Assembly (NCBI GenBank): GCA_943354385.1
Contig: CALRBR010000001.1
Span: 2,942-66,941, forward strand
Origin: Candidatus Tayloriibacteriota bacterium
Lineage (GTDB): Bacteria > Patescibacteriota > Minisyncoccia > Phycocordibacterales > PALSA-1337
Length of the DNA stretch: 64,000 nt
Direction: 5' to 3'
This document shows, in pieces, positions 28,414 to 49,494 of this stretch (its first letter is position 1; each line of letters opens with the position of its first letter). The position numbers and the translations under genes were made by a program. Under the pieces are notes generated by a model. It saw only the letters and a list, made by a program, of their open reading frames with translations. It was not told the origin of the DNA and did no database searches.

Positions 28414-28445
28414 GGATGATGTGTGAATAAATGACTGTGAATAAA

Positions 28446-33064: not shown

Positions 33065-33099
33065 TATAATTTAGGTACTGTCACTAATATATTATTCTC

Positions 33100-33313
33100 C
33101 CTTTTTTAAAGGGAGCACCGCTAGTACTCTAGCGTGGAGGGATTTGAAATCCAAAATCCTCCGTCTCGAGTACGAGCCACCTCCTTTAGAAAAGGAGGAA
33201 TAAATCCCTCGACTAACGTCTGCTGAGTCGATCGTTTATGATCGACACCTGTAGACGGGCACATCGGTAGATGATGTGCACTTGTAGACAGCCTTTAGGA
33301 AAGGGAGAATAAG
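33100..33313. repeat. modular hairpin repeat cluster R2 (all five module types)
   Basis: attctcccttttttaaagggag, ggagggatttgaaatccaaaatcctcc, cctcctttagaaaaggagg, gtcgatcgtttatgatcgacacctgtagacgg, catcggtagatgatgtgcacttgtagac, ending in aaagggagaataag. Confidence 0.8.
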
Positions 33314-33341: not shown

Positions 33342-33605
33342 ATGCTCCACAATCTTCGTCAAAAAACAGAATATCAAAAGAGAAAAATCGCAGTAGTGAC
33401 ATCTATTTTGGTCACAGGGGTTATTTTTGTATTCTGGATTTCTAGCACAATTCATTCTTTCTCGGCACTGGATGCTGAACCAGGTGAAGTAGCTGTTGTT
33501 TCAGAAAGCCCATTTAATATGGTCAAAGAAAATATTGCTTCGGTGTACGAAAGTATGACAAAAGAGGTGGTGAAGGTGAAACAACAGATTTTGAAAGAAG
33601 AGTAG
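33342..33605 (+). CDS. hypothetical small membrane-anchored protein (upstream partner of the giant gene)
   Basis: 87 aa with an N-terminal TM helix (VVTSILVTGVIFVFWISSTI). Confidence 0.4.
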   Translation: MLHNLRQKTEYQKRKIAVVTSILVTGVIFVFWISSTIHSFSALDAEPGEVAVVSESPFNMVKENIASVYESMTKEVVKVKQQILKEE

Positions 33606-33647
33606 TTTTTGAATAGGGGTAAAAAGTTTGTCGAGTATTGATTAAAA

Positions 33648-33694
33648 TAACTACAGCCCTAAAATTTTCAGTAGAAAATTTTAGGGCTGTAGTT
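33648..33694. promoter_or_regulatory. perfect 20-bp-stem hairpin in the leader or promoter region of the giant gene
   Basis: aactacagccctaaaattttc agtaga gaaaattttagggctgtagtt. No T-tract follows. tatataat lies 12 nt upstream of ATG 33746. Confidence 0.5.
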
Positions 33695-33745
33695 ATCCAC
33701 ACATACACACAGACTTTTCCTATTATTAGGTATATAATTGTACCT

Positions 33746-36700
33746 ATGCGTTTAGCAAAGTTATTTTTTGCTTCTATCCTTTTTATTTTCGGCTCGTTGT
33801 TTTTTGTATCTACGGCATCGGCGCAGTCTTTTCAGAATCCTCTTCTGTTTGTTCCATTCGAATTGGATTATGTCGACTATAGCTCCAATAAGCTCTATAG
33901 CAACTGGTTTACAGGAGGAGCTCCGGCCGACATTGATACAAGTATAAAAAAATTCGGTTCCGCTTCCGGCCATTTTCCAGCTACGGGAATAGATAGGGAG
34001 ATGTTATACAAAAGCCCTAATTTTGATTTCTCTAATCAAGATTTCACCATCGATTTCTGGTGGTATCCAACCACCCAAAGCGTGGGTTTTTTTAATAAAC
34101 CACTACTTTCTTTTTGGGATCTCAATGGAAGTGGTGGCATCAATAATGTTAAGTGGGCTTTAATCTATTTTAGTGAATATGATTTTTTTGCGGTGGTTGA
34201 TTACAATAAGGGAGTAATTCTACGTTCGATTGATAGTGGTGGACTATTAAATTTTAACCAATGGAATCATATATCTGTACAATGGAAGCAGGGGACAGGG
34301 GGTACCGATGGTGGCAGTGGGCTGGGTATTTCTATAAATGGCAAGATGCGTTCGTCAAACTCTTTTTATAACAATGGCATGATCCCGTCTGGGGTGGGTG
34401 CTATGGTGGTTGGAGACAGTGGTTCATCCTGGCCACGCGTCGATTATTATCTGGATGAACTTCGTGTTACAAAAGGTACAGCTCTATGGGGAAGCGTCGC
34501 CAATCAGAACGGTTCCTTTACCACTCCATCTATTAATGATTATCCAAAAATTGAAAACAAGACAGCGGAATCTGTTATAAGTACTACCGCTACACCCATG
34601 GTTCAAGGTACCATACCTCTTCTACTCGCGCATTTTGATAATAATTATTATGATAATAGTATAAATAATATTTACAGCAATTGGTTTATTGGCGGGGGAC
34701 CGTCTGAGATTGATTCGGCTATAAAAAAGTTTGGGATTGGGTCGGGACATTTTTCTGCAACAGGAATAGATAAGGAGAATCTATACCAAGACCCTCGGTT
34801 AGACCTTGCGAGCGGCGATTTTACTGTAGATTTCTGGTGGCGTCCGACAGGTGATTTGACTAGCTTTAATAAAATCCTATTGAGTTTTTGGGGTCTTGAT
34901 GCAAATAGTCTCATAAAAGATCGGAAGTGGTATCTAAAATATGACGGGAGTGGGGCGAACCCAGGTTTTGAAGTGGTTAATGATCAGGGTAGAATGCTTC
35001 GCTGGATGGGTAGCGATTCGCTTTTGAAGGTCAACGAATGGAATCATATTTCTCTACAAAAGAAACAGGGATCAGGGGGTAGTGATGGTGGTAGTGGTCT
35101 CGGTCTTTCTATCAATGGATATATGCGACCGTCCAATTCTTTCTATAACTACGGCACCCTTCCAGGAGGGGTTGGTGCGATGGTCCTAGGGTATAAAGAT
35201 ACAAGTTTCCCGAGAGTTGATTACTATATTGACGAACTTCGTGTCACAAAAGGTACAGCTCTCTGGGGGAATGTTAGTAATCAGAATGGTTACTTTGCTC
35301 CGCCCACAAAAGGTGATTATTCCAATCTAGTAGTAGATCAAAATAAAGTAACTACTCCTGTCGCTGGTCATATTGATACGCATACTGTCTCCCTTGGTAA
35401 CACCACTGATACTACTGAATCAAATGTTGCCTATTCTGCATGCCCTCCTGGATCGACCAGGCCATCTACACGCGAAGAGTATTTGATCAAACTCGACGGC
35501 ACCCCAAAGTTCACGAGCTATCTTGATATAAACAATAAGCTGATCTGTACGACGTATTGGGCAGGTAATGCGACAACCACTACCAGTAGTAAGCTAAAGC
35601 GTTTTGAGTACGATACTGATGGTCAGATCGCTCGAGAGATCTATTATGGTTTGGACGGTGCAAGTATTACTGATGTGGTGACTTATTTTTCAAAATCTGC
35701 CGGAGGTGCTCGTCAAAAGGAGATTCAAAATCGAAGCGGTACCGAATATTACAAGCGCTACTCGACTACCGGCAGACTTCTCTATGAGCACGAATATAAA
35801 AATAGTCAGTATGTAGTGTCGCGTAACTTTACGTATGATGGGGCAGGTAGACTCGCAAGCGAACTTATCTTTAACTCATCGGTTCAATATGAAAAAGTCG
35901 TTTATATACGAAATGGCAGTGGAGTCGTAACACAGACAGATAGTTACAGAGCGTATGCACCGATAGGTACAGATACGGCAAATTATGTCCACACCACCTC
36001 TACCTACGCAGGTACGGTGGTGACAGGTATTACTCGTACTTATTTCAATAAAGATGCTGGCTCACCGACGGCTTTGCGCACTGAAATAGCCCGATATAAT
36101 ACTTCCGGTGTAGCGATAGATCAGAGGACATTTGACTACGCTCAAAATAAACAAAAGTTGAGTACCTACATCACTACTGGCACAGCATCATTGCTTGGGC
36201 GACTGAAGACAGACGAGGAGTGGTCTACTGTGGATTATTCATACGCCTCATCTTCTCTTGCGTATAACACGACTACCGGCGAGCTCCTTTCTTGGACTAA
36301 AACCAACTATGACGATATGAGTGCTCAGGGCGCAAAAGCTGGATACTACGGGAAAAAATACACGGTGTATAACCCTAAAACAGGCTTACCCAAAACGGAG
36401 GATTTTATTGACTACTATTTACCTAGCTTAAATTGGAAACAATCCAACTCTGTTAAGTATGATGAAAAAGGTTTGGTGGATGCACGTCGGGTTCATCAGT
36501 ACAGAGATTCTGCTGCTGCAAGATTTAACTACATATCTACAGTATATTCAAAAGACGGGCTCATAAATGCGATTTCAAAGTATGACGATGTGACTGGTAA
36601 TGTTCTTTCTAACGAAACATATTATGGAAATGGCGAGCCTTGGTATCTTCAAAAATATAAGTACAATACTGCCGCTGGCCAATACGAAGTCAGTTCTTTC

Positions 36701-39700
36701 AGGGTAAATTATAGGGATGCTCTTTCTACCAGTACGGCGAGTGATCTTGTAGCTGACGGTACTGCCGTGAATACAAATCTCCTTGTTTTTGTGAGTCAGT
36801 CAGTCCCGAGAGACCCACTTAGTCAAAAGAAAATAGGTGATAAGATCTTGGCTAATATTTCTGATGTGTCTCTTCGTGGCCAAGCGGAGGGCGGTACTGA
36901 AAAGTTGGCTATTCGTGCGGTGCTCAAGGCTCTCTTACCAGAGTATAAAAACGCCCTCGTTACTGTTTCTGAAAGTGATCCACTCAAAAAGGAAAAACGT
37001 TACGAGATCTACGTGGCGTATTCCTCGAGAATATCTAGAGCGATTTATGCAATAGAGTATCGTATCCATAATATATCAAAAAATCTTAATACAGATAAGT
37101 CCTTAGAGGACACGGTGGTGGGATGGTATGGTATAGACGGTACTGATCTTTCAGGCAACACAGAATTCTGGGGTCTATATATACGACCGGGGGCAGTGGC
37201 GTATGCAGATCCAGAAGCTGTCTATGTAGACATGAGTATCATAGATCCATCTGCGGTTGATTTTGCCACAAACGCTTCTTCCTACGATGACCTCAAGAGT
37301 ACTGCAAAGAAAATAGAAAAATGGGACGCGCTCAGCCAGGGTGCGGGTGTCTCATATTCGAATAGTACTCTATCATTGTCATTGTTCAACCTATCCGGCG
37401 GCGACGGTAGATACATCACACTTGATGATATGACAAAAGCTGACCCAACAGTAAATCTTACATTGGATAGGTTTGAGGAGGACATGAAGACTTCGGGGGT
37501 AACACTCTCCACTCTTAGTGAGTCGGCGCTCATAGATAAGATGTATGAATACTTTAATAAACAAAGCTATTTCAGCTATTCGTACGACCTATCACAAGTA
37601 TCACAGACAGTAAATCAAACCTTGGTACGTAAAGGTGGAGATTGTGAAGATTTTGGTCTATTCTTCCTTAGTTTATTGAGGGGTGAATTTGCTAGACTCG
37701 GTAACACATCTATCACAAGCAGACTTGGTTTGGCGTTTGCGAATGTTGATAATAACGCTGCTATTTCGTCGAGTAACCGCGGAGGAGGTCATGCGTCTAT
37801 TGTGTATAGAAGTAATGCAGACAATCAGTACTACTATATTGATGCAAGCTTTATATTTTTGGGATCAGGGGCGGATCCTGCGAGACCTGTACCAGTAGCA
37901 CGTAATCTTGTAAACTCTGCCGGTGCCAGTACCGCAGGTGTATTGGGTCAGGGTGGCTGGTATGTAAAGGTTGCTGACTTCTTCCCAATAAACGGCCCAC
38001 TTGTCCCTTTTAATTCAGGACGTATTAGTACTTTCCACGATAACACCAGCCAGACTAATTCCGTAGATACCATTGTCGCCCAAGTTTCAAATATCTACAC
38101 CAAACTAGAACCATACAATCCGCTAGTCACCACACTTGCTTCGAGTACAGTCCAGACTATTCCTAACTTCAAAAATCAGTCAGCGGAGTTTGTGGTAGAA
38201 AGTACGCACAGCTTCTTTAATAAACTGAAAGATTACAGAGCCGATCAGGGAGCAGATATCTGGAGTGGTGTAGGTCAGACATTGCCAGCGGTTATAAAAG
38301 CAGACGGCACAGTCAATCTCGCTGGGAAGATTTCTGGCGACTGTGAGGACCTGGCTTTTGCTGAAGCGAGCCTCCTTGAAAATGTGCTTCTACGATATTA
38401 CCTTGCTGGTGGTGCCGTGCCACAAAATGCCGCCAATCAGGCAAAAAGTAATGTCATAATACTCGCTGAAAAGAATTACGGCTCATCGACAGGTCCCTCA
38501 CATCTCTATGTCGGCTATGTGACCCCTAAGACAGATACTTCTCCAGCTGTTGTCCGTCTCATTGATCCACAGCTCGGCACTATCGGCGCACCTCAGCTCA
38601 TGAGCGATTTGTATAACGACAAGTATCTATTCTTTTCTGACCGGGAAAAGGTGAGTGCGATTACTCCATACGATTGGAGTGCACTCAATTTTTCTTCTGC
38701 TGTAGCTGCCGCTGCTGCAAATGGTATCGTGTTAAATCCTGGTCCGGTAGATCCAAAGGCTCCGGTAAAGCAGAATCTCACCCCTAATCAACAGGAAGCG
38801 ATCATTAATGCGATAGTCACTGCAGACCCACCAAAGCCAAGTGCATTCAGTACATTTATTAGTTTTGTGTACGAAAAATCCGGACTAAAATCGATACTAG
38901 AGGCGAGTACTATTACAGAAACTTTTGTCCGAGCAGCAGCAACTTTGGCAGTGATGATAGGTGGTGGACCAGTAGGGACAGTAGTCACAGCATCTGGCAC
39001 TATTATTAATACAGCCTCAGGGTCACCAGCAGATAAGCCTATCATTCCTAGCGTAGGTGATGCAGCGGTTTCTGTTATAAATACTGCAGGGCGAGTCGTG
39101 GCGAGTGTTTTCGGTATCTTTACGGCACCAGGTGGACCATCTGATATGTCTGACGCACGAATGAACGCTGAGGCAGCTTTTGCTGCTGGGAGAATCAGTC
39201 CAGCTGGACCAATGAATTTCGGTTCCGGTGCTGGAGATGTAGGTTGCTCCGCGGCTTCATGCGGTACTGTTTTTGTCCAAAGAAATAATACTACAAATGT
39301 GGTATCTGCGATTGGCTATGGTGAAACATCTCGTACTAATCAGACTAGGTCGTATAACGAGTCTACTAATGTGATGACCATTACTACCAATACCACGATT
39401 GTACTACCTCTGTCGCCATATTTTCAGTCGCCAACAGCCCGTCTTATACCGCCAAAACCTACATGCCCCCTAGGCACCCAACTTTGTTCCGAGGTAACCA
39501 ATGAGATAGTTAGAGCTCCAGCAAACGCCACTCTTTCCGGTCCTCTGGCTACCTGCTATGTTTCTGGTGAAGCACCGTCTTGTCAGACGCGTCAGTACAA
39601 TACACAGTGGTCGTGCAATAACTCACTTTTGTATAAAAAAGATGCTACAGGTACAGGCTGTATCTGTGATGATCCAACAGCAACTGGTGTTAGTCCAGCG

Positions 39701-40576
39701 GGTGAGTGTCAGTACGGCGCGACGATATCCTGTGTGGGGGGTATTGATCCAAACGCCATACCGTCACCAGTAGGTGTTGGTGCGAAAGGGGTCAGTTCAT
39801 TCCCTGCTCCAGCTGGCCGAATTTCTTCTCCGCTAGCGTGGACACTTTCTAGTACAGCTGTTGCGGACGGTAATACCGAATGTAAATGGTCGTGTGGTAC
39901 CGGGTTTACTTTTGACGCTGGATTTTGTAAATCGAGTCAAGTATTTTCTTGCACGGATCCTGTCGGAGTTACACCGATGAATAGTCCAAAGATGACTTTG
40001 TGTCCAGAAGATCAGAGAGATCTTTCTTCAGACACACAAGGTGTAATTGTCACTAGCTGTACCATCCCTAAAAAATGTGAGTATACATGCAATCTTCCTA
40101 CGTATACACGTTCCTCGACACCACCATTTTCTTGTGTTTGCTCGATAGGGACAAACCCTGATGGATCGTGTACACTGCCCACCGTGACTTCTTCTAACGT
40201 GAGTATCTTTGCTACCCCTGGAACAAAAGTTACTGGTAATATTGTAACTCAATATCTGGATACTAATAAATCAACCGCTATTAATAAAAAGATTACCGTA
40301 AAAAAGAACCAGGAGTTTAAATTGAATTGGGAGCATACTACACCAAGCGCCTCAGGTAAATGTACGCCAACATTTACCAGTCCTATTACTGGCACTGGTG
40401 CGGAAGCACTATGGAAAGAAGTCCTACCTACTGGAGTGAATGGTTCAAAGGAGGGTTTGAAACTAGATAAAACCGGCCAGTATATCTTTGGAGTTTCTTG
40501 TGATTCAGGAGGTATAACTTCTGCAGATTCCGTAACTGTACAAGTAGCACCATCCGGTTCATTTGAAGAATTTTAA
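33746..40576 (+). CDS. giant secreted multidomain protein: signal peptide, 2x LamG-like (Laminin_G_3-type), YD/RHS repeats, 2x transglutaminase-like cysteine-protease cores, Cys-rich region, C-terminal beta domain
   Basis: Signal peptide MRLAKLFFASILFIFGSLFFVSTASA. Two ~230-aa units ending in LDELRVTKGTALWG (LamG-type). FEYDTDGQIAREIYYG and FTYDGAGRLASE YD repeats. GGDCEDFG...GGGHASIVYRS...YYIDAS and GDCEDLAFAEASLL...HLYVGY...IDPQ (transglutaminase-like Cys/His/Asp cores). More than 30 Cys between nt 39470 and 40190. Confidence 0.85.
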   Translation: MRLAKLFFASILFIFGSLFFVSTASAQSFQNPLLFVPFELDYVDYSSNKLYSNWFTGGAPADIDTSIKKFGSASGHFPATGIDREMLYKSPNFDFSNQDFTIDFWWYPTTQSVGFFNKPLLSFWDLNGSGGINNVKWALIYFSEYDFFAVVDYNKGVILRSIDSGGLLNFNQWNHISVQWKQGTGGTDGGSGLGISINGKMRSSNSFYNNGMIPSGVGAMVVGDSGSSWPRVDYYLDELRVTKGTALWGSVANQNGSFTTPSINDYPKIENKTAESVISTTATPMVQGTIPLLLAHFDNNYYDNSINNIYSNWFIGGGPSEIDSAIKKFGIGSGHFSATGIDKENLYQDPRLDLASGDFTVDFWWRPTGDLTSFNKILLSFWGLDANSLIKDRKWYLKYDGSGANPGFEVVNDQGRMLRWMGSDSLLKVNEWNHISLQKKQGSGGSDGGSGLGLSINGYMRPSNSFYNYGTLPGGVGAMVLGYKDTSFPRVDYYIDELRVTKGTALWGNVSNQNGYFAPPTKGDYSNLVVDQNKVTTPVAGHIDTHTVSLGNTTDTTESNVAYSACPPGSTRPSTREEYLIKLDGTPKFTSYLDINNKLICTTYWAGNATTTTSSKLKRFEYDTDGQIAREIYYGLDGASITDVVTYFSKSAGGARQKEIQNRSGTEYYKRYSTTGRLLYEHEYKNSQYVVSRNFTYDGAGRLASELIFNSSVQYEKVVYIRNGSGVVTQTDSYRAYAPIGTDTANYVHTTSTYAGTVVTGITRTYFNKDAGSPTALRTEIARYNTSGVAIDQRTFDYAQNKQKLSTYITTGTASLLGRLKTDEEWSTVDYSYASSSLAYNTTTGELLSWTKTNYDDMSAQGAKAGYYGKKYTVYNPKTGLPKTEDFIDYYLPSLNWKQSNSVKYDEKGLVDARRVHQYRDSAAARFNYISTVYSKDGLINAISKYDDVTGNVLSNETYYGNGEPWYLQKYKYNTAAGQYEVSSFRVNYRDALSTSTASDLVADGTAVNTNLLVFVSQSVPRDPLSQKKIGDKILANISDVSLRGQAEGGTEKLAIRAVLKALLPEYKNALVTVSESDPLKKEKRYEIYVAYSSRISRAIYAIEYRIHNISKNLNTDKSLEDTVVGWYGIDGTDLSGNTEFWGLYIRPGAVAYADPEAVYVDMSIIDPSAVDFATNASSYDDLKSTAKKIEKWDALSQGAGVSYSNSTLSLSLFNLSGGDGRYITLDDMTKADPTVNLTLDRFEEDMKTSGVTLSTLSESALIDKMYEYFNKQSYFSYSYDLSQVSQTVNQTLVRKGGDCEDFGLFFLSLLRGEFARLGNTSITSRLGLAFANVDNNAAISSSNRGGGHASIVYRSNADNQYYYIDASFIFLGSGADPARPVPVARNLVNSAGASTAGVLGQGGWYVKVADFFPINGPLVPFNSGRISTFHDNTSQTNSVDTIVAQVSNIYTKLEPYNPLVTTLASSTVQTIPNFKNQSAEFVVESTHSFFNKLKDYRADQGADIWSGVGQTLPAVIKADGTVNLAGKISGDCEDLAFAEASLLENVLLRYYLAGGAVPQNAANQAKSNVIILAEKNYGSSTGPSHLYVGYVTPKTDTSPAVVRLIDPQLGTIGAPQLMSDLYNDKYLFFSDREKVSAITPYDWSALNFSSAVAAAAANGIVLNPGPVDPKAPVKQNLTPNQQEAIINAIVTADPPKPSAFSTFISFVYEKSGLKSILEASTITETFVRAAATLAVMIGGGPVGTVVTASGTIINTASGSPADKPIIPSVGDAAVSVINTAGRVVASVFGIFTAPGGPSDMSDARMNAEAAFAAGRISPAGPMNFGSGAGDVGCSAASCGTVFVQRNNTTNVVSAIGYGETSRTNQTRSYNESTNVMTITTNTTIVLPLSPYFQSPTARLIPPKPTCPLGTQLCSEVTNEIVRAPANATLSGPLATCYVSGEAPSCQTRQYNTQWSCNNSLLYKKDATGTGCICDDPTATGVSPAGECQYGATISCVGGIDPNAIPSPVGVGAKGVSSFPAPAGRISSPLAWTLSSTAVADGNTECKWSCGTGFTFDAGFCKSSQVFSCTDPVGVTPMNSPKMTLCPEDQRDLSSDTQGVIVTSCTIPKKCEYTCNLPTYTRSSTPPFSCVCSIGTNPDGSCTLPTVTSSNVSIFATPGTKVTGNIVTQYLDTNKSTAINKKITVKKNQEFKLNWEHTTPSASGKCTPTFTSPITGTGAEALWKEVLPTGVNGSKEGLKLDKTGQYIFGVSCDSGGITSADSVTVQVAPSGSFEEF

Positions 40577-40584
40577 ATAAAATT

Positions 40585-40959
40585 ATGAAACAATCACCAA
40601 AAATTATTGTAGGAAGCATCATTACACTACTTGTTCTTATTATTATTGCCTGTATTATTTATTACTTTTTTCTTTTGAAACCAGATCCAGTACTACTCCA
40701 TCAGCCAGAATTTCGCCTATCAGAAGAGGTAGAAAAAGAAATAGAGAACACAGTGGCACAGATTGAGGTAATAGAAGATACGCAAGAAAAAACTGTTGCG
40801 GAGCAGGAACAACAACTTCAGCAAAATAGACAGGCTGTAAAAACTATTAATACAAAACAGTTTGTCGAACAGCAGAGAAGGGTAGAGCAGACGCAACAGG
40901 CTATGGATCGACAGGAAGCCGTACTGCCTGGTGGTCGTTTCGACTTTAACCCAAAGTAG
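40585..40959 (+). CDS. hypothetical TM plus Gln-rich coiled-coil protein (downstream partner, 9 nt after the giant gene stop)
   Basis: 124 aa. TM helix IIVGSIITLLVLIIIACIIYYFFLL, then EQEQQLQQNRQ coiled-coil. Confidence 0.5.
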   Translation: MKQSPKIIVGSIITLLVLIIIACIIYYFFLLKPDPVLLHQPEFRLSEEVEKEIENTVAQIEVIEDTQEKTVAEQEQQLQQNRQAVKTINTKQFVEQQRRVEQTQQAMDRQEAVLPGGRFDFNPK

Positions 40960-40962
40960 ATA

Positions 40963-41140
40963 AAATCCCTCGACCTGCTGGTCTGCTCCCTTTAAAAAAG
41001 GGAGAATGGATGCAGACCCCTTCATTCTTTGATAAGGTGGGCCGTCTACAGATGTCGATCAGCGAATGATCGACTTGTTTGCGTATCATTCTCCCTTTTT
41101 TAAAGGGAGCACCGCCAGTAATCTGGCGTGGAAGGATTTC
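40963..41140. repeat. modular hairpin repeat cluster R3
   Basis: aaaatccctcgacc, ctccctttaaaaaagggagaatgg, gccgtctacagatgtcgatcagcgaatgatcgac (inverted module), cattctcccttttttaaagggagcaccgcc. Confidence 0.75.
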
Positions 41141-41254
41141 GTCTTTTCTATACCTAAAGAGAAATACTTAAAATCTTTGACATTTATGTTTAATGGGTGT
41201 ATAATAGGGTTTGAAGTATAGGAATGGTTTCTATACGCACTCTTACATGTTTTT

Positions 41255-41665
41255 ATGAAAATAATGTTCTCGGCACTTGTTGCCACGGTCATGATCGGCC
41301 TCGGCACCGGCTGTGTTACAGCTGATCGCACCTCTTTGGTCGGTCTCCCAGTCCACACCACTCCTGTTGGCTCTACGGTTAAGACCAACGGAGTCGCTGT
41401 TGGAGTCACTCCGGTTACTATCACCTTGCCTAGAATGGCAGGGAAGAAAGGGAACGAAGTCGCGGTCACGGTGATCCTCGAAGGTTACCAGACACAGGAC
41501 TTCGTCATGCGGTCCCGCATATCCTGGGAGGGTTTCTTTTTCCTCCTTCAACGCTTCCCAGTCACACTTATTTTCGGGAAGTCAGCCTCCGAGCCAGGGT
41601 CAGCACTTGACCTGGTCCCTAGGCAAATAGACACAGTGCTTATCCCACTTCGTCCCGCAGATTAA
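41255..41665 (+). CDS. PEGA-domain lipoprotein
   Basis: Lipobox LGTGC. VHTTPVGSTVKTNGVAVGVTPVTITLP...VAVTVILEGYQ fits the PEGA consensus. Confidence 0.6.
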   Translation: MKIMFSALVATVMIGLGTGCVTADRTSLVGLPVHTTPVGSTVKTNGVAVGVTPVTITLPRMAGKKGNEVAVTVILEGYQTQDFVMRSRISWEGFFFLLQRFPVTLIFGKSASEPGSALDLVPRQIDTVLIPLRPAD

Positions 41666-41859: not shown

Positions 41860-41903
41860 TTCTTCTACATTAATATTGCGACCGCAATATTAATGTAGAA
41901 GAG
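41860..41903. repeat. 44-bp palindrome IR-L (21-bp arms, centre AC) immediately 3' of the PaaX-like gene
   Basis: ttcttctacattaatattgcg ac cgcaatattaatgtagaagagg. It is the reverse complement of the copy at 42589-42634. Confidence 0.9.
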
Positions 41904-41911
41904 GCGTGTAG

Positions 41912-42502
41912 TTAATTTTTTAAATTAAAATACTTACAAATCATCTTGTCACCCTCGAGTTGATCGACTATCATATAGAGAACATCTTTGCCGATACGCA
42001 AATCTGCCTTCAAAAGAGACACGAGTTTTTCGCACGGATATGGGTATATCCAGACGCTGTTCTGAAGTTTTATAAAGCCGATTGACATTAATGTTGATCG
42101 AAGTTTTTCCCGAATAAACTTCTTTCTTTCTGGAATATCGAAAATAATCACACGCCACTTCTTATCCCACCTTGGCGGATGGTTATTTTGTTTTGAAAAA
42201 AGAATTGCTCGGTCGAGCATCTTTTTGCCCCTTTCTGTGAGTTGAAGTACCTTGCCATGAACTGTGACCTCAACTTTCAGGAAGCCATTTTTGATAAGAT
42301 TATCTTTCGTTCTCAGTATACTTTTGTGTTTGTAATTATAGGCTTTCCTGTCTCCAGAACCGATCTTCAATAATTTTAAGGCATTTGGAGCAAGAAGTCC
42401 GAGTGCAAGTATTCCGGTGGCAGATACAGTTCCAAGTATTATCTGTTGGAGTTTTGTTGTTCGTATCTTGTTCCTCTCCCGTTTTTCTAGTAAGTTGTTC
42501 AT
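41912..42502 (-). CDS. membrane-anchored wHTH plus Cas2-fold (PaaX-family-like) putative regulator
   Basis: N-terminal hydrophobic helix. wHTH-like LIKNGFLKVEVTVHGKVLQLTERGKKML. C-terminal VIIFDIPERKKFIREKLRSTLMSIGFIKLQNSVWIYPYP resembles the Cas2/PaaX C-domain (VxxYDI...RR...L...G.R.Q.SV). Confidence 0.45.
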   Translation of the reverse strand: MNNLLEKRERNKIRTTKLQQIILGTVSATGILALGLLAPNALKLLKIGSGDRKAYNYKHKSILRTKDNLIKNGFLKVEVTVHGKVLQLTERGKKMLDRAILFSKQNNHPPRWDKKWRVIIFDIPERKKFIREKLRSTLMSIGFIKLQNSVWIYPYPCEKLVSLLKADLRIGKDVLYMIVDQLEGDKMICKYFNLKN

Positions 42503-42588: not shown

Positions 42589-42634
42589 CCTCTTCTACAT
42601 TAATATTGCGGTCGCAATATTAATGTAGAAGAGG
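42589..42634. repeat. 46-bp palindrome IR-R (22-bp arms, centre GT), 87 nt upstream of the PaaX-like gene start
   Basis: cctcttctacattaatattgcg gt cgcaatattaatgtagaagagg. Confidence 0.9.
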
Positions 42635-47507: not shown

Positions 47508-48002
47508 ATGAATATATTTGTTCTCACAAATACGCAAAAAACTTTTTTTAAGACTGGTGTGGTTTTTTGTTTAGCCCTTGTTCTTTTGGCAGTGCCTGTG
47601 TTGGCACTTGCTCAAGGTCCTTTACCTGGAGATCCAGACTTTGTGGGTCCAGTACAGCGTGGGGGACTCGTACCATGTGACGGGCCTTCTTTAGATAAGC
47701 CCGGATTGGTGTCACCACCCGGCTATGTTCCATGTGATTTTAAAGCTCTACTCAATGGTATCAACGGCATTATCAACTGGCTCTTTATTATTGCAATACC
47801 TGTCTCACTTGTCGCTTTTACTTATGCTGGTATTCTTTTTATGTCAGGCAAGGAGGGCAATATCACCGAGGGAAAAGAGATTTTCCTAAAGGTGGTGCAA
47901 GGAATAGCGATCATGGCGGTCGGGTGGCTTTTGGTTCACACGATTATCAGAGCCCTTCTCAATCCCAAGGCGGATCTGGGAGCGTATTTATTTGGGTTAT
48001 AG
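47508..48002 (+). CDS. small secreted 2-TM protein, paralog 1 (VirB2/TrbC-like architecture)
   Basis: Signal peptide (VLALAQG), Pro-rich linker, then two hydrophobic helices (WLFIIAIPVSLVAFTYAGILFM / GIAIMAVGWLLVHTII). Confidence 0.55.
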   Translation: MNIFVLTNTQKTFFKTGVVFCLALVLLAVPVLALAQGPLPGDPDFVGPVQRGGLVPCDGPSLDKPGLVSPPGYVPCDFKALLNGINGIINWLFIIAIPVSLVAFTYAGILFMSGKEGNITEGKEIFLKVVQGIAIMAVGWLLVHTIIRALLNPKADLGAYLFGL

Positions 48003-48048
48003 TGGGAAAAGGAGGAATAAGACCAAAAAGATTAAGCTTTAAATAACA

Positions 48049-48414
48049 ATGAAAATCACACAAAAATATAAGAGCATGTTATTGGCGACGGCAGTGATGG
48101 CAATGTTGGTTTCGGTGAGTATCGTCTCGGCTCAAAGCACAGGCTCGTTTACGCTACCCAATCCAATCAAAGCCAACAATATCCAAGATCTCGTTTTTCA
48201 GATTACCGATATTGTTTTGATCATCGCGATACCTATATCAGTTCTTCTACTCATTTATTCGGGTTTCCTTTTTGTAAAGGCACGGGGCAATGAGACTGAG
48301 GTCACTGAGGCAAAAAAAACATTTTACTACACCATCATCGGTATTGCGGTGCTTTTTGGTGCCCGTTTCTTGTCAGAAATAGTCCGTGGTACAATTGAGC
48401 AATTAAAGGGTTAA
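48049..48414 (+). CDS. small secreted 2-TM protein, paralog 2
   Basis: Signal peptide (VSIVSAQS). DIVLIIAIPISVLLLIYSGFLFV / YTIIGIAVLFGARFL. Confidence 0.55.
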   Translation: MKITQKYKSMLLATAVMAMLVSVSIVSAQSTGSFTLPNPIKANNIQDLVFQITDIVLIIAIPISVLLLIYSGFLFVKARGNETEVTEAKKTFYYTIIGIAVLFGARFLSEIVRGTIEQLKG

Positions 48415-48429
48415 TTATTATTAAGAAAT

Positions 48430-49029
48430 ATGAAAAAAAATACTTCATTTTTAGGGAAGGTAGCTATGCTAGGGGGAGCGCTCATGCCAGCGCTAGTTTT
48501 TGCTCAGGGCAAGATTACGACTTTTGAGGGTTTGGTAAATAAATTTATTTCGATTATCAAATATGTAGTACCACTTATTTTTGCTATTGCTCTCGTCGCC
48601 TTCCTTTGGGGGGTTTTCCAGTATTTCTTTTCTGGTGCAGAGAAAAAGGAGGAGGCCAAGGATTTTCTACTCTACGGTATTATCGGGCTGTTTATTATGG
48701 TTTCGGTGTGGGGACTAGTGCGAATATTGACCGGTACTTTTCTTTTAGAGAATGCTCAGCCGAATTTACCCGGCCTGGGTGCCGGTAGTAGTTCTTCTGG
48801 ATCTGGTAGCGGTGGATATTATCAGGGTTATCCAGGGGGTGAGAACTACCGACCTACTTCTGGAGCTGGTAGCGGGGCGTCTCCGTTTGATTCAAATGCG
48901 CCTATTAGTGGATCTGGATCAACAAGTGGCGGCAGTGGTGATGGTAGTGCTGACGGATCGGGAAGTGGGTCCAGAGATAACCCCGGAACAGCTGAATTGG
49001 ATAAGGCGGCAGGGGATTTTCCCAGATAG
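48430..49029 (+). CDS. small secreted 2-TM protein, paralog 3, with Gly/Ser-rich C-terminal tail
   Basis: Signal peptide (ALVFAQG). VVPLIFAIALVAFLWGVFQYFFSG / LYGIIGLFIMVSVWGLVRIL. The tail is GSGSGGYYQGYPGG...GSGSTSGGSGDGSADGSGSGS. Confidence 0.55.
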   Translation: MKKNTSFLGKVAMLGGALMPALVFAQGKITTFEGLVNKFISIIKYVVPLIFAIALVAFLWGVFQYFFSGAEKKEEAKDFLLYGIIGLFIMVSVWGLVRILTGTFLLENAQPNLPGLGAGSSSSGSGSGGYYQGYPGGENYRPTSGAGSGASPFDSNAPISGSGSTSGGSGDGSADGSGSGSRDNPGTAELDKAAGDFPR

Positions 49030-49134
49030 CTTATCCACAACAGTGTTTGTCGATAGGTCCCAGTATGCTACAATTAGTCCACAGACCTCGTGTCTCATTA
49101 ACAGATTTTATTATTAAGAAGTAATATATACAAT

Positions 49135-49494
49135 ATGAAAAAAGCGTTTATTGCACTTTCAGCGTTTGCACTTCCTGCCCTAGCTCTTGCTCAGGCAGTA
49201 CGAGATGCAAACACCCTTTTTAGTAAAGCGACCAACATTTTGAATGCAATCATCCCGATTGTTATTTCACTGGCGGTAGTAGTGTTTATTATAGGTATCT
49301 TCCGATACATCATTGCAGGAGATGAAGAGTCAAAAAAAGGAGCAAAAAGCTTGATTCTTTACGGTATTATCGGTATTTTTGTGATGATTTCTGTCTACGG
49401 GCTTGTGCGAGTATTGGTAAACACTTTTGGACTAGAGAAACAGCTCGATAACTCAGATATACCACAAGTGCTGCCATTCCGAGGAGGACTCTAA
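49135..49494 (+). CDS. small secreted 2-TM protein, paralog 4
   Basis: Signal peptide (ALALAQA). IIPIVISLAVVVFIIGIFRYIIAG / LYGIIGIFVMISVYGLVRVL. Confidence 0.55.
   Translation: MKKAFIALSAFALPALALAQAVRDANTLFSKATNILNAIIPIVISLAVVVFIIGIFRYIIAGDEESKKGAKSLILYGIIGIFVMISVYGLVRVLVNTFGLEKQLDNSDIPQVLPFRGGL

Follow-up and report, generated by a model that had tools for sequence, protein, structure and literature searches.

A giant gene with twin LapG-like cores and a small membrane-protein partner in a Patescibacteria genome

The only leads so far to the ways in which ultrasmall Patescibacteria recognise, hold and exploit their partner cells are type IV pili and a few giant proteins. The present analysis concerns a gene located in a 64,000-nucleotide stretch of DNA (the whole of which is referred to as the window) from a Candidatus Taylorbacteria-related member of this group (contig CALRBR010000001.1 of assembly GCA_943354385.1). 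On the plus strand of the window, an open reading frame (ORF) extending from an ATG at 33746 to a stop codon ending at 40576 encodes a protein of 2276 amino acids (aa), hereafter the giant protein, and is followed by the gene of a 124-aa membrane protein. Large, lineage-specific and rapidly changing exoproteins of Patescibacteria have already been proposed to serve as adhesins (PMC11809585). The parts of the two genes discussed below are as follows.

33746-40576, plus strand: giant gene, 2276 aa, intact ORF; the coordinates include the stop codon
33746-33823, plus strand: predicted Sec signal peptide, aa 1-26 (...STASA, then QS), read from the sequence, kept in orthologues
33827-34531, plus strand: LamG-1 (Laminin_G_3 / ConA-like lectin fold), aa ~28-262, by Pfam PF13385
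34613-35305, plus strand: LamG-2, aa ~290-520, by Pfam PF13385
35468-36775, plus strand: Tyr-rich region of putative beta-hairpin repeats, divergent YD-like, aa ~575-1010, by profile and motif evidence
36803-37495, plus strand: helical plus small beta subdomain before the predicted catalytic cores, aa 1020-1250; local confidence (pLDDT) of the AlphaFold2 (AF2) model mostly 80-97; kept in distant relatives
37496-37990, plus strand: TG1, LapG-like transglutaminase-fold cysteine peptidase domain, by Transglut_core/DUF553 and weak LapG profile matches
37643-37645, 37790-37792 and 37841-37843, plus strand: TG1 codons C1300, H1349 and D1366, by motif position
38063-38695, plus strand: TG2, second homologous core, by hhalign against TG1 and placement in the AF2 model
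38342-38344, 38501-38503 and 38564-38566, plus strand: TG2 codons C1533, H1586 and D1607, by motif position
38696-39244, plus strand: linker rich in Ala/Gly/Pro/Ser, containing two Gly-rich segments of moderate hydrophobicity (aa 1730-1754 and 1773-1793)
39245-40195, plus strand: Cys-rich region, with 24 Cys in aa 1834-2252, extending into the next domain; Cys positions invariant in orthologues
40196-40573, plus strand: C-terminal beta-rich domain ending in PSGSFEEF-COOH (tail at 40550-40573, kept in eight orthologues)
40585-40959, plus strand: partner gene, 124 aa, starting 8 nt beyond the giant gene's stop

The giant gene and its family

A first-pass annotation of this DNA, made from the sequence alone, had placed a single 6.8-kb gene in this interval, and that description stands: the frame runs through 6.8 kb without interruption, the base composition is even along the gene, and the translation is identical to a public protein (P0001) that has five orthologues with 60-89% identity. 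The cleavable signal peptide which the annotation had proposed is likewise borne out as a prediction, the N-terminus MRLAKLFFASILFIFGSLFFVSTASA, followed by QS, reading as a Sec-type signal with a hydropathy of 2.26.

The giant protein represents a rare family that had not been annotated before. When 5.8 billion proteins were searched by word index, only the protein itself and five orthologues of ~2000 aa were retrieved, and such a search with the region of the two cores returned a single fragment, P0013. An exhaustive hidden Markov model search of 1.84 billion representatives, employing a profile of aa 545-1700, identified 19 proteins, of which the named ones come from Patescibacteria. The whole core of ~1100 aa, comprising the YD-like region, the helical subdomain, TG1 and TG2, is present in seven of the 19, and several have only a part of ~630 aa (the helical subdomain, TG1 and TG2) behind unrelated N-terminal regions. 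Pfam contains no model for this conserved core.

The identity of the giant protein to its orthologues at three related loci is 64% (L001), 66% (L002) and 47% (L007), compared with 88-97% for the flanking enzymes, and the three small envelope genes beside it show 40-74% in the same comparisons. Within the protein, the core (aa 540-1660) is 51-64% identical to that of L007, and the LamG heads, the linker and the C-terminal third are 24-45% identical. Such a pattern of rates would suit exposed surfaces driven by interactions, with relaxed constraint as an alternative. The earlier suggestion of a host-attachment or effector system has to be divided: a role in surface interaction fits the fast evolution of the giant protein and of its small envelope neighbours, and the words "effector system" are conjecture.

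The twin cores

LapG is a cysteine protease with a C-H-D triad that cleaves, and thereby releases, the giant adhesin LapA (PMC3032545, PMC4359373). Two cores with a Cys...His...Asp set each had been noted in the giant protein at first pass, and both lie exactly where they had been put, as C1300/H1349/D1366 and C1533/H1586/D1607; the two motif sets are kept in eight orthologues. The original label, transglutaminase-like, is right as regards the fold and is here refined to a LapG-like (BTLCP-like) cysteine peptidase fold, with TG2 a probable pseudo-enzyme in several relatives. Among seven orthologues scanned with Pfam, Transglut_core is matched in all seven (best E 4.6e-4) and DUF553 in three. 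A profile search of PDB sequences gave weak matches to LapG chains (E 0.01-0.06), aligned on the motif ..W..P.E.l..GGDCEDFA, and PDB sequence searches with shallow profiles gave no matches.

An AF2 model of aa 1020-1660, computed from an alignment of 17 diverse family sequences (A9), reached a mean pLDDT of 84 and a predicted TM-score (pTM) of 0.75, and has a papain/transglutaminase fold. When this model was compared with the PDB by Foldseek, the top match was Pseudomonas LapG (4u65_E, E 9e-4), the search having used the two-domain model and so not distinguishing which of the cores matched LapG. The pseudomurein endoisopeptidases PeiW/PeiP are also among the structural matches, and a search of a viral fold library with the core model returned nothing meaningful. 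In the model, C1300 and C1533 are located at helix N-termini, H1349 and H1586 in strands, and D1366 and D1607 at the ends of the next strands. The predicted-structure check that had been proposed for the cores therefore finds, at the level of secondary structure, a papain/transglutaminase-type placement of Cys, His and Asp in each, and model and sequence together indicate that this arrangement occurs twice. The helical and small beta subdomain in front of the cores is part of the conserved ~630-aa unit.

TG1 and TG2 are homologous to each other (hhalign probability 97.3%, E 2.6e-11, 64 columns, with deep alignments; 41% only with shallow ones), and they differ in conservation. The Cys and His of TG1 are invariant in 17 of 17 family members. 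Six members have S, G, E or T in place of the TG2 Cys, and in five of these the His is missing as well (P0016, P0018, P0022, P0023 and P0026). Since Cys and His are lost together, TG2 is probably a genuine active site in members that retain the pair, among them the protein of the window, and has decayed elsewhere; in the lineages that have lost both residues its sequence is that of a pseudo-enzyme.

Two further observations concern TG2 and LapG. Among database fragments, P0013 and P0027 are short stand-alone or fragmentary TG2-like proteins in which the nucleophile is replaced (GDSEDLAF and GGANLAF), which again points to the LAF.EAS helix, and not the Cys, as the best-conserved element of TG2. 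A candidate LapG cleavage site in the giant protein itself, TAAG at aa 975, was rejected, as it is not kept in orthologues.

Partner, tail and variable regions

The 124-aa protein has a basic N-terminus, one transmembrane (TM) helix (..IIYYFF..), a PEF.LSE motif, a Gln/Glu-rich coiled coil and the C-terminal sequence LPGGRFDFNPK. It corresponds to the TM and Gln-rich coiled-coil protein of the first-pass annotation, apart from the spacing to the giant gene, which is 8 nt and not 9. Throughout the lineages examined, namely those of the window with its close relatives, L007, L009, L010/L016, L011, L013 and L014, a small partner gene begins 5-21 nt after the stop of the giant gene, and at L008 it follows a 976-aa protein with the tail FQEF instead. 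The partner family has a constant architecture (alignment A11), in which a basic N-terminus leads into a single TM helix, followed by a PEF.LSE-like motif, a coiled coil and the C-terminal motif [LI]PG..F.[FL]NP[KR]. From their arrangement, the giant gene and the 124-aa gene appear to be translationally coupled, and they are co-conserved across all lineages examined. At L014 (63-7216), the core-bearing protein stops right after TG2 and is followed by the small partner gene and then by a separate 840-aa tailed protein, the partner gene thus sitting exactly at the junction that is fused in the giant protein of the window.

All orthologues of the giant protein end in P[ST]G.F.E[FI]-COOH, and a tail of the form P-x-[FY]-x-E-[FI]-COOH is common to at least seven non-orthologous large secreted proteins in relatives. 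Of the 235 ORFs encoding 100 aa or more in all the fetched DNA, 18 have the ending [FY].E[FI], where 0.07 would be expected. P0015 ends in a tail of this type, as do the following proteins, whose genes are near those of family members.

L007, 18041-20731: 896-aa tailed protein, which has the Cys-rich and beta-rich C-terminal domains in common with the giant protein and also a Gly_rich_2 domain
L008, 2686-5616: 976-aa FQEF-tailed protein
L013, 4974-12644 and 13080-15641: 2556-aa and 853-aa tailed proteins
L014, 4694-7216: 840-aa tailed protein

The giant protein stops at FEEF, and hydropathy reveals no TM helix after the tail. The motif may be a new C-terminal tag. The domain that precedes it is beta-rich, with faint Pfam hints only for the label Ig-like which it had been given.

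The Cys-rich region upstream of this domain has fewer Cys than the "more than 30" first reported, namely 24, with 28 in the whole protein. Similar Cys-rich modules are present in P0014, P0015, P0018, P0019, P0020 and the 896-aa protein of L007. The linker between TG2 and this region is the least conserved part of the giant protein (24% identity to L007). At 38933-39124 (aa 1730-1793) it contains the Gly-rich segments ..AVMIGGGPVGTVV.. and ..AAVSVINTAGRVVASVFGIF.., and similar Gly-rich hydrophobic segments occupy the same relative position in P0005, P0006, P0018, P0019 and P0020. They could be a membrane-interacting or glycine-zipper-like element; a reading as TM helices was rejected, the scores being borderline and under the usual TM threshold and the segments containing GGGP. 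A conserved stretch of linker carries ..LNFSSAVAAAAANG...

At the other end of the protein, the two tandem LamG domains proposed at first pass are confirmed by Pfam, where Laminin_G_3 (PF13385) matches two stretches above the gathering score (E 2e-13, 51.1 bits versus a cut-off of 27.6); orthologues are likewise annotated with PF13385. Among six close orthologues, only the protein of the window has the second copy, and the distant relatives P0014 and P0017 have two LamG domains each. The two copies are 55% identical, which points to an old tandem duplication and not to mis-assembly. Across relatives, the head domains differ in number and kind, being one LamG, two LamG or InlB B-repeats.

The region between heads and cores had been described as canonical YD/RHS repeats, a description that does not hold. 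A motif scan finds just two clean xYDxxG motifs (FEYDTDGQ and FTYDGAGR). RHS_repeat (PF05593) and YD_repeat_2x (TIGR01643) have zero matches in the protein of the window and in seven orthologues, even at E<=10 on the isolated segment, and a permissive Pfam scan gives weak DUF2963 and MORN_2 matches. The family profile does match a true RHS_repeat protein, P0029, in six stretches (E 3.9e-6), and a low-confidence AF2 model of aa 545-1700 (five-sequence alignment, pLDDT 33) displays a run of beta hairpins. The Rhs core autoproteolysis motif PxxxxDPxGL is absent from the giant protein by regular-expression scan. The region is therefore best described, as far as its sequence goes, as a divergent YD-like beta-hairpin spacer and not as an Rhs toxin shell, and the designation of the whole as an RHS-type protein falls with the lack of an RHS_repeat match, of the Rhs core motif and of a toxin/immunity pattern.

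Beyond the giant gene and its partner, the immediate surroundings comprise the following.

33342-33605, plus strand: 87-aa protein with a single TM helix, a local neighbour rather than a demonstrated partner
33647-33696: perfect hairpin with a 23-bp stem upstream of the giant gene
41255-41665, plus strand: PEGA-domain probable lipoprotein, 136 aa, by PEGA PF08308 (22.5 bits versus 20.8)

In the close lineage, the gene order is Lactamase_B_3, an 86-89-aa TM gene, the giant gene, a 125-aa gene, the PEGA gene, one intervening gene and gyrA, and the housekeeping genes of the window are those of FtsA/FtsZ, HisRS, signal peptidase, MurJ, Mur ligase and gyrA. Both the 87-aa TM ORF upstream and the PEGA lipoprotein downstream, named in the first pass, do exist, the latter scoring above the Pfam gathering threshold and having a lipobox-like LGTGC, with a Cys kept in orthologues. 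The proposed operon with three partners is reduced to one, the 124-aa gene. The 87-aa gene is separable: it is absent beside distant relatives of the giant protein, and in L002/L003 an inserted AbiEii/DUF6922 pair parts its 86-aa counterpart from the giant gene. The PEGA gene, present in L001, L002, L004, L006 and L007, has its own promoter (41177-41205, TTGACA-17-TATAAT, a 12/12 sigma-70 match). The synteny check thus retains the 124-aa gene in all lineages examined and drops the 87-aa gene, and since the small membrane-protein gene is found in every lineage, the conserved unit consists of it and the giant gene. The inserted pair (L002 2167-3060, L003 706-1599) comprises DUF6922 and AbiEii, a nucleotidyltransferase toxin, and lies just upstream of the hairpin and promoter of the giant gene.

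The perfect hairpin reported upstream of the giant gene is present, with a stem of 23 bp and not 20. At seven loci (the window, L001, L002 and L004-L007), the stems differ in sequence and yet always pair, so the changes are compensatory. An invariant AGTTATCCACA follows the hairpin (box at 33693-33701) and equals the E. coli DnaA-box consensus. A TATAAT at 33733-33738 ends 7 nt before the ATG of the giant gene (7-8 nt across loci) and a Shine-Dalgarno sequence is missing, an arrangement suggestive of a transcript with little or no leader, preceded by a conserved regulatory site. At L002, the block of hairpin, box and TATAAT stays with the giant gene and not with the 86-aa gene. A function of the hairpin as a plus-strand intrinsic terminator was rejected, since the T-run is confined to its minus-strand side. 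The window shows no enrichment of TTATCCACA. On the minus strand at 28422-28444, between the HisRS and signal-peptidase genes, there are two TTATTCACA boxes whose starts are 14 nt apart and which each differ at one position from the DnaA-box consensus.

The modular repeats said to bracket the block are real (33092-33312 and 40984-41111), and the bracketing is not: the downstream copy lies between the 124-aa and PEGA genes, and further copies are found at ~8565 and ~50646. This dispersed intergenic repeat is built around CTCCCTTTTTTAAAGGGAG with nearby short hairpins (nine matches versus 0.04 expected); one copy abuts tRNA-Arg, and the element resembles a repetitive extragenic palindrome or a miniature inverted-repeat transposable element. 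Further along, a 196-aa PaaX_M gene (Cas2-like domain; 41912-42502, minus strand) has a copy of a 44-nt palindrome on either side (41861-41904 and 42589-42634), and because relatives carry the gene of a 307-aa secreted protein there instead, the region looks like a small insertion or replacement cassette. Four tandem T4SS_pilin/TrbC-like genes at 47508-49494 follow methyltransferase and solute-binding-protein genes, an arrangement kept in L002.

Possible role of the giant protein and comparison with known systems

We consider that the giant protein is, with a probability of about 0.55, a Sec-exported, surface-anchored adhesin-enzyme that serves cell-cell contact in this Patescibacteria cell, a reading drawn from sequence and model. 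The predicted Sec signal would direct the giant protein to the cell surface, where the C-terminal module and the 124-aa membrane protein would hold it on the envelope, the coiled-coil stalk of the latter providing the tagged C-terminus with an anchor or receptor. The LamG heads, which evolve fast, may bind glycans on the partner or host cell, and the cysteine-peptidase cores may cut or, less likely, cross-link surface proteins. They could act on the partner cell's proteins, or on the giant protein itself and so bring about its release or maturation, as LapG does in trans for LapA. Counted in favour of enzymatic cores are the invariance of Cys and His in TG1, their correlated loss in TG2 and the consistent Transglut_core and DUF553 matches. 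The reading as a whole also draws on the intact ORF with its signal peptide, the LamG match, the homology of TG1 and TG2, the constant partner, the shared tail, the divergence of the giant protein beside well-kept neighbours, the pilus genes around or near relatives at L009 and L011, and the adhesins already proposed for Patescibacteria.

Several results weigh against this proposal. In the Pfam scan, Transglut_core (PF01841) scores 16.6 bits on the TG1 of the window, below the cut-off of 23, and PF06035 (BTLCP / LapG, peptidase C93) is not listed in any Pfam scan of the giant protein or its orthologues. Most relatives have Glu as the acid residue of TG1, and TG2 is, by its residues, clearly non-catalytic in several of them, so that TG2 catalysis would be dispensable for the family. 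The flanking housekeeping genes are conserved in order within the close lineage too, and synteny in that lineage therefore says little. A word-indexed search of the large protein database with the C-terminal domain had zero matches. An LPXTG or known CTERM anchor was rejected, since LPXTG is absent by motif scan and no NCBIfam CTERM or Pfam sorting model matches, which leaves the protein with no recognised anchoring signal; anchoring by tail and partner is inferred from their co-occurrence only.

Of the other explanations, it is unlikely that the giant protein builds or maintains the cell's own envelope, its cores cross-linking or trimming the cell's own wall or S-layer and its LamG domains binding the cell's own glycans, with no host contact. 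All close relatives have the gene at the same genomic place, amid conserved housekeeping genes (FtsA/FtsZ, signal peptidase, MurJ, Mur ligase and gyrA), and the transglutaminase fold covers true cross-linkers as well as PeiW/PeiP; a core envelope function, however, would be widespread, and the family is extremely rare (19 in 1.84 billion), diverges fast relative to its neighbours and varies in its heads. A part in type IV pili, which drive episymbiosis in Saccharibacteria (PMC11623550), is suggested by two lineages: at L009 the genes of P0020, a relative, and of its small partner are flanked by pilM on one side and by pilN-like/pilO/pilB on the other (PilM_2, PilO at E 5.9e-7 and T2SSE matched), and at L011 a PilB-type T2SSE ATPase is encoded 3.3 kb downstream of the relative. 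The giant protein would then be a pilus accessory, such as a pilus-associated adhesin or a PilMNO substrate or partner, and the 124-aa protein, which has the TM plus coiled-coil layout of PilN/PilO, an adaptor of that type. The link is suggestive, not general: pilus genes are absent near the giant gene in the window, L001-L008, L010, L013 and L014, the protein has a Sec signal and not a prepilin signal, and the partner has no PilN/PilO match in Pfam or NCBIfam, its architecture being merely similar. We regard a role as pilus accessory as quite improbable.

A polymorphic toxin of the Rhs/YD type, with the variable C-terminus as toxin and the small downstream gene as immunity gene, was rejected as very improbable. 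It draws on the two YD-like motifs, the match of the family profile to a true RHS_repeat protein, the variable C-terminal third and a small gene directly 3' of the giant gene. Against it stand the unmatched RHS_repeat and NCBIfam YD models, the missing Rhs core and a repeat region of just ~440 aa; moreover, the end motif is kept in distant relatives and in other secreted proteins, the opposite of a polymorphic tip, and the downstream product is a membrane protein with an outward-facing coiled coil and the same architecture and end motif in all lineages. That the gene is an assembly chimera or a decaying pseudogene is hardly credible. Its great length, the metagenome-type data and a tandem LamG copy found in this genome only, relative to close orthologues, would invite such a suspicion, which the frame open throughout, the uniform composition, collinear orthologues of ~2000 aa on eight independent contigs and LamG copies too divergent, at 55% identity, for a collapsed or expanded repeat all contradict.

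The reading of the giant protein as a surface adhesin-enzyme may be carried further, at rather long odds, to an undescribed surface-display system of Patescibacteria, in which a C-terminal tag, the beta-rich domain with its P-x-[FY]-x-E-[FI]-COOH end, would mark several large secreted proteins and be received and anchored by a small bitopic coiled-coil protein, in some lineages together with a type IV pilus platform, and the giant protein would be an adhesin with its own LapG-type release or maturation proteases. Proteobacteria have this regulatory module as an enzyme of its own; in such a system it would here have become part of the adhesin. The locus defines a rare family with a conserved, putatively enzymatic core in which TG1 is always intact, diversifying modular heads, a constant partner and a shared tail, and the predicted catalytic Cys residues, the tail and the partner offer testable handles on how these hard-to-culture organisms display surface proteins and make contact with other cells. 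Should tail and partner form a sorting system, they could predict the surface proteome of these genomes.

Among known systems, LapG / BTLCP (PDB 4fgo, 4u65) provides the closest solved structure to the two cores. LapG is a free periplasmic enzyme of ~200 aa in diderms, controlled by LapD and c-di-GMP, that cuts an RTX adhesin exported by a type I secretion system (T1SS), whereas here two copies are fused inside the 2276-aa protein itself, the sequence similarity is marginal, and no LapD or T1SS genes are present in the window. Membership of the LapG family is not established, because the similarity in sequence is marginal and the setting wholly unlike that of LapG; as a functional analogy, the comparison seems apt. 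In relation to the wider transglutaminase-like superfamily (PF01841 and DUF553 PF04473; TG2/TG3, PNGase, Rad4, TglA and PeiW), the domains of the giant protein score under the Pfam gathering cut-offs and, unlike typical members, are tandemly duplicated, with the second degenerate in several relatives. With Rhs/YD-repeat proteins and Tc-toxin shells, the giant protein shares a Tyr/Gly-rich, putative beta-hairpin region with a few xYDxxG motifs, a likeness that is a profile-level link only, through P0029; unlike them, it lacks an RHS_repeat match, the Rhs core, the aspartyl autoprotease motif and an encapsulated toxin, and its repeat region is too short for a closed shell.

The presence of one C-terminal module on unrelated secreted proteins of the same genomes is a hallmark of sorting or anchoring tags, as in type IX secretion C-terminal domains, LPXTG, PEP-CTERM and MYXO-CTERM, and by this analogy we infer that the shared tail works as such a tag here. 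The analogy is functional only, as no TM helix follows the motif, unlike in LPXTG and CTERM signals, and the protein stops at ...F-x-E-F. The FhaB/DUF2341 proteins of Patescibacterium danicum (PMC11809585) are, like the giant protein, very large, secreted, lineage-restricted and fast-evolving, with ConA/LamG-type domains and a presumed function in adhesion or host contact; unlike them, the giant protein has no FhaB domains and possesses a conserved, putatively enzymatic core, a dedicated partner gene and a tail motif. Large exoproteins of Patescibacteria are thus already known, and the new leads are the module of tail and partner and the fused LapG-like pair.

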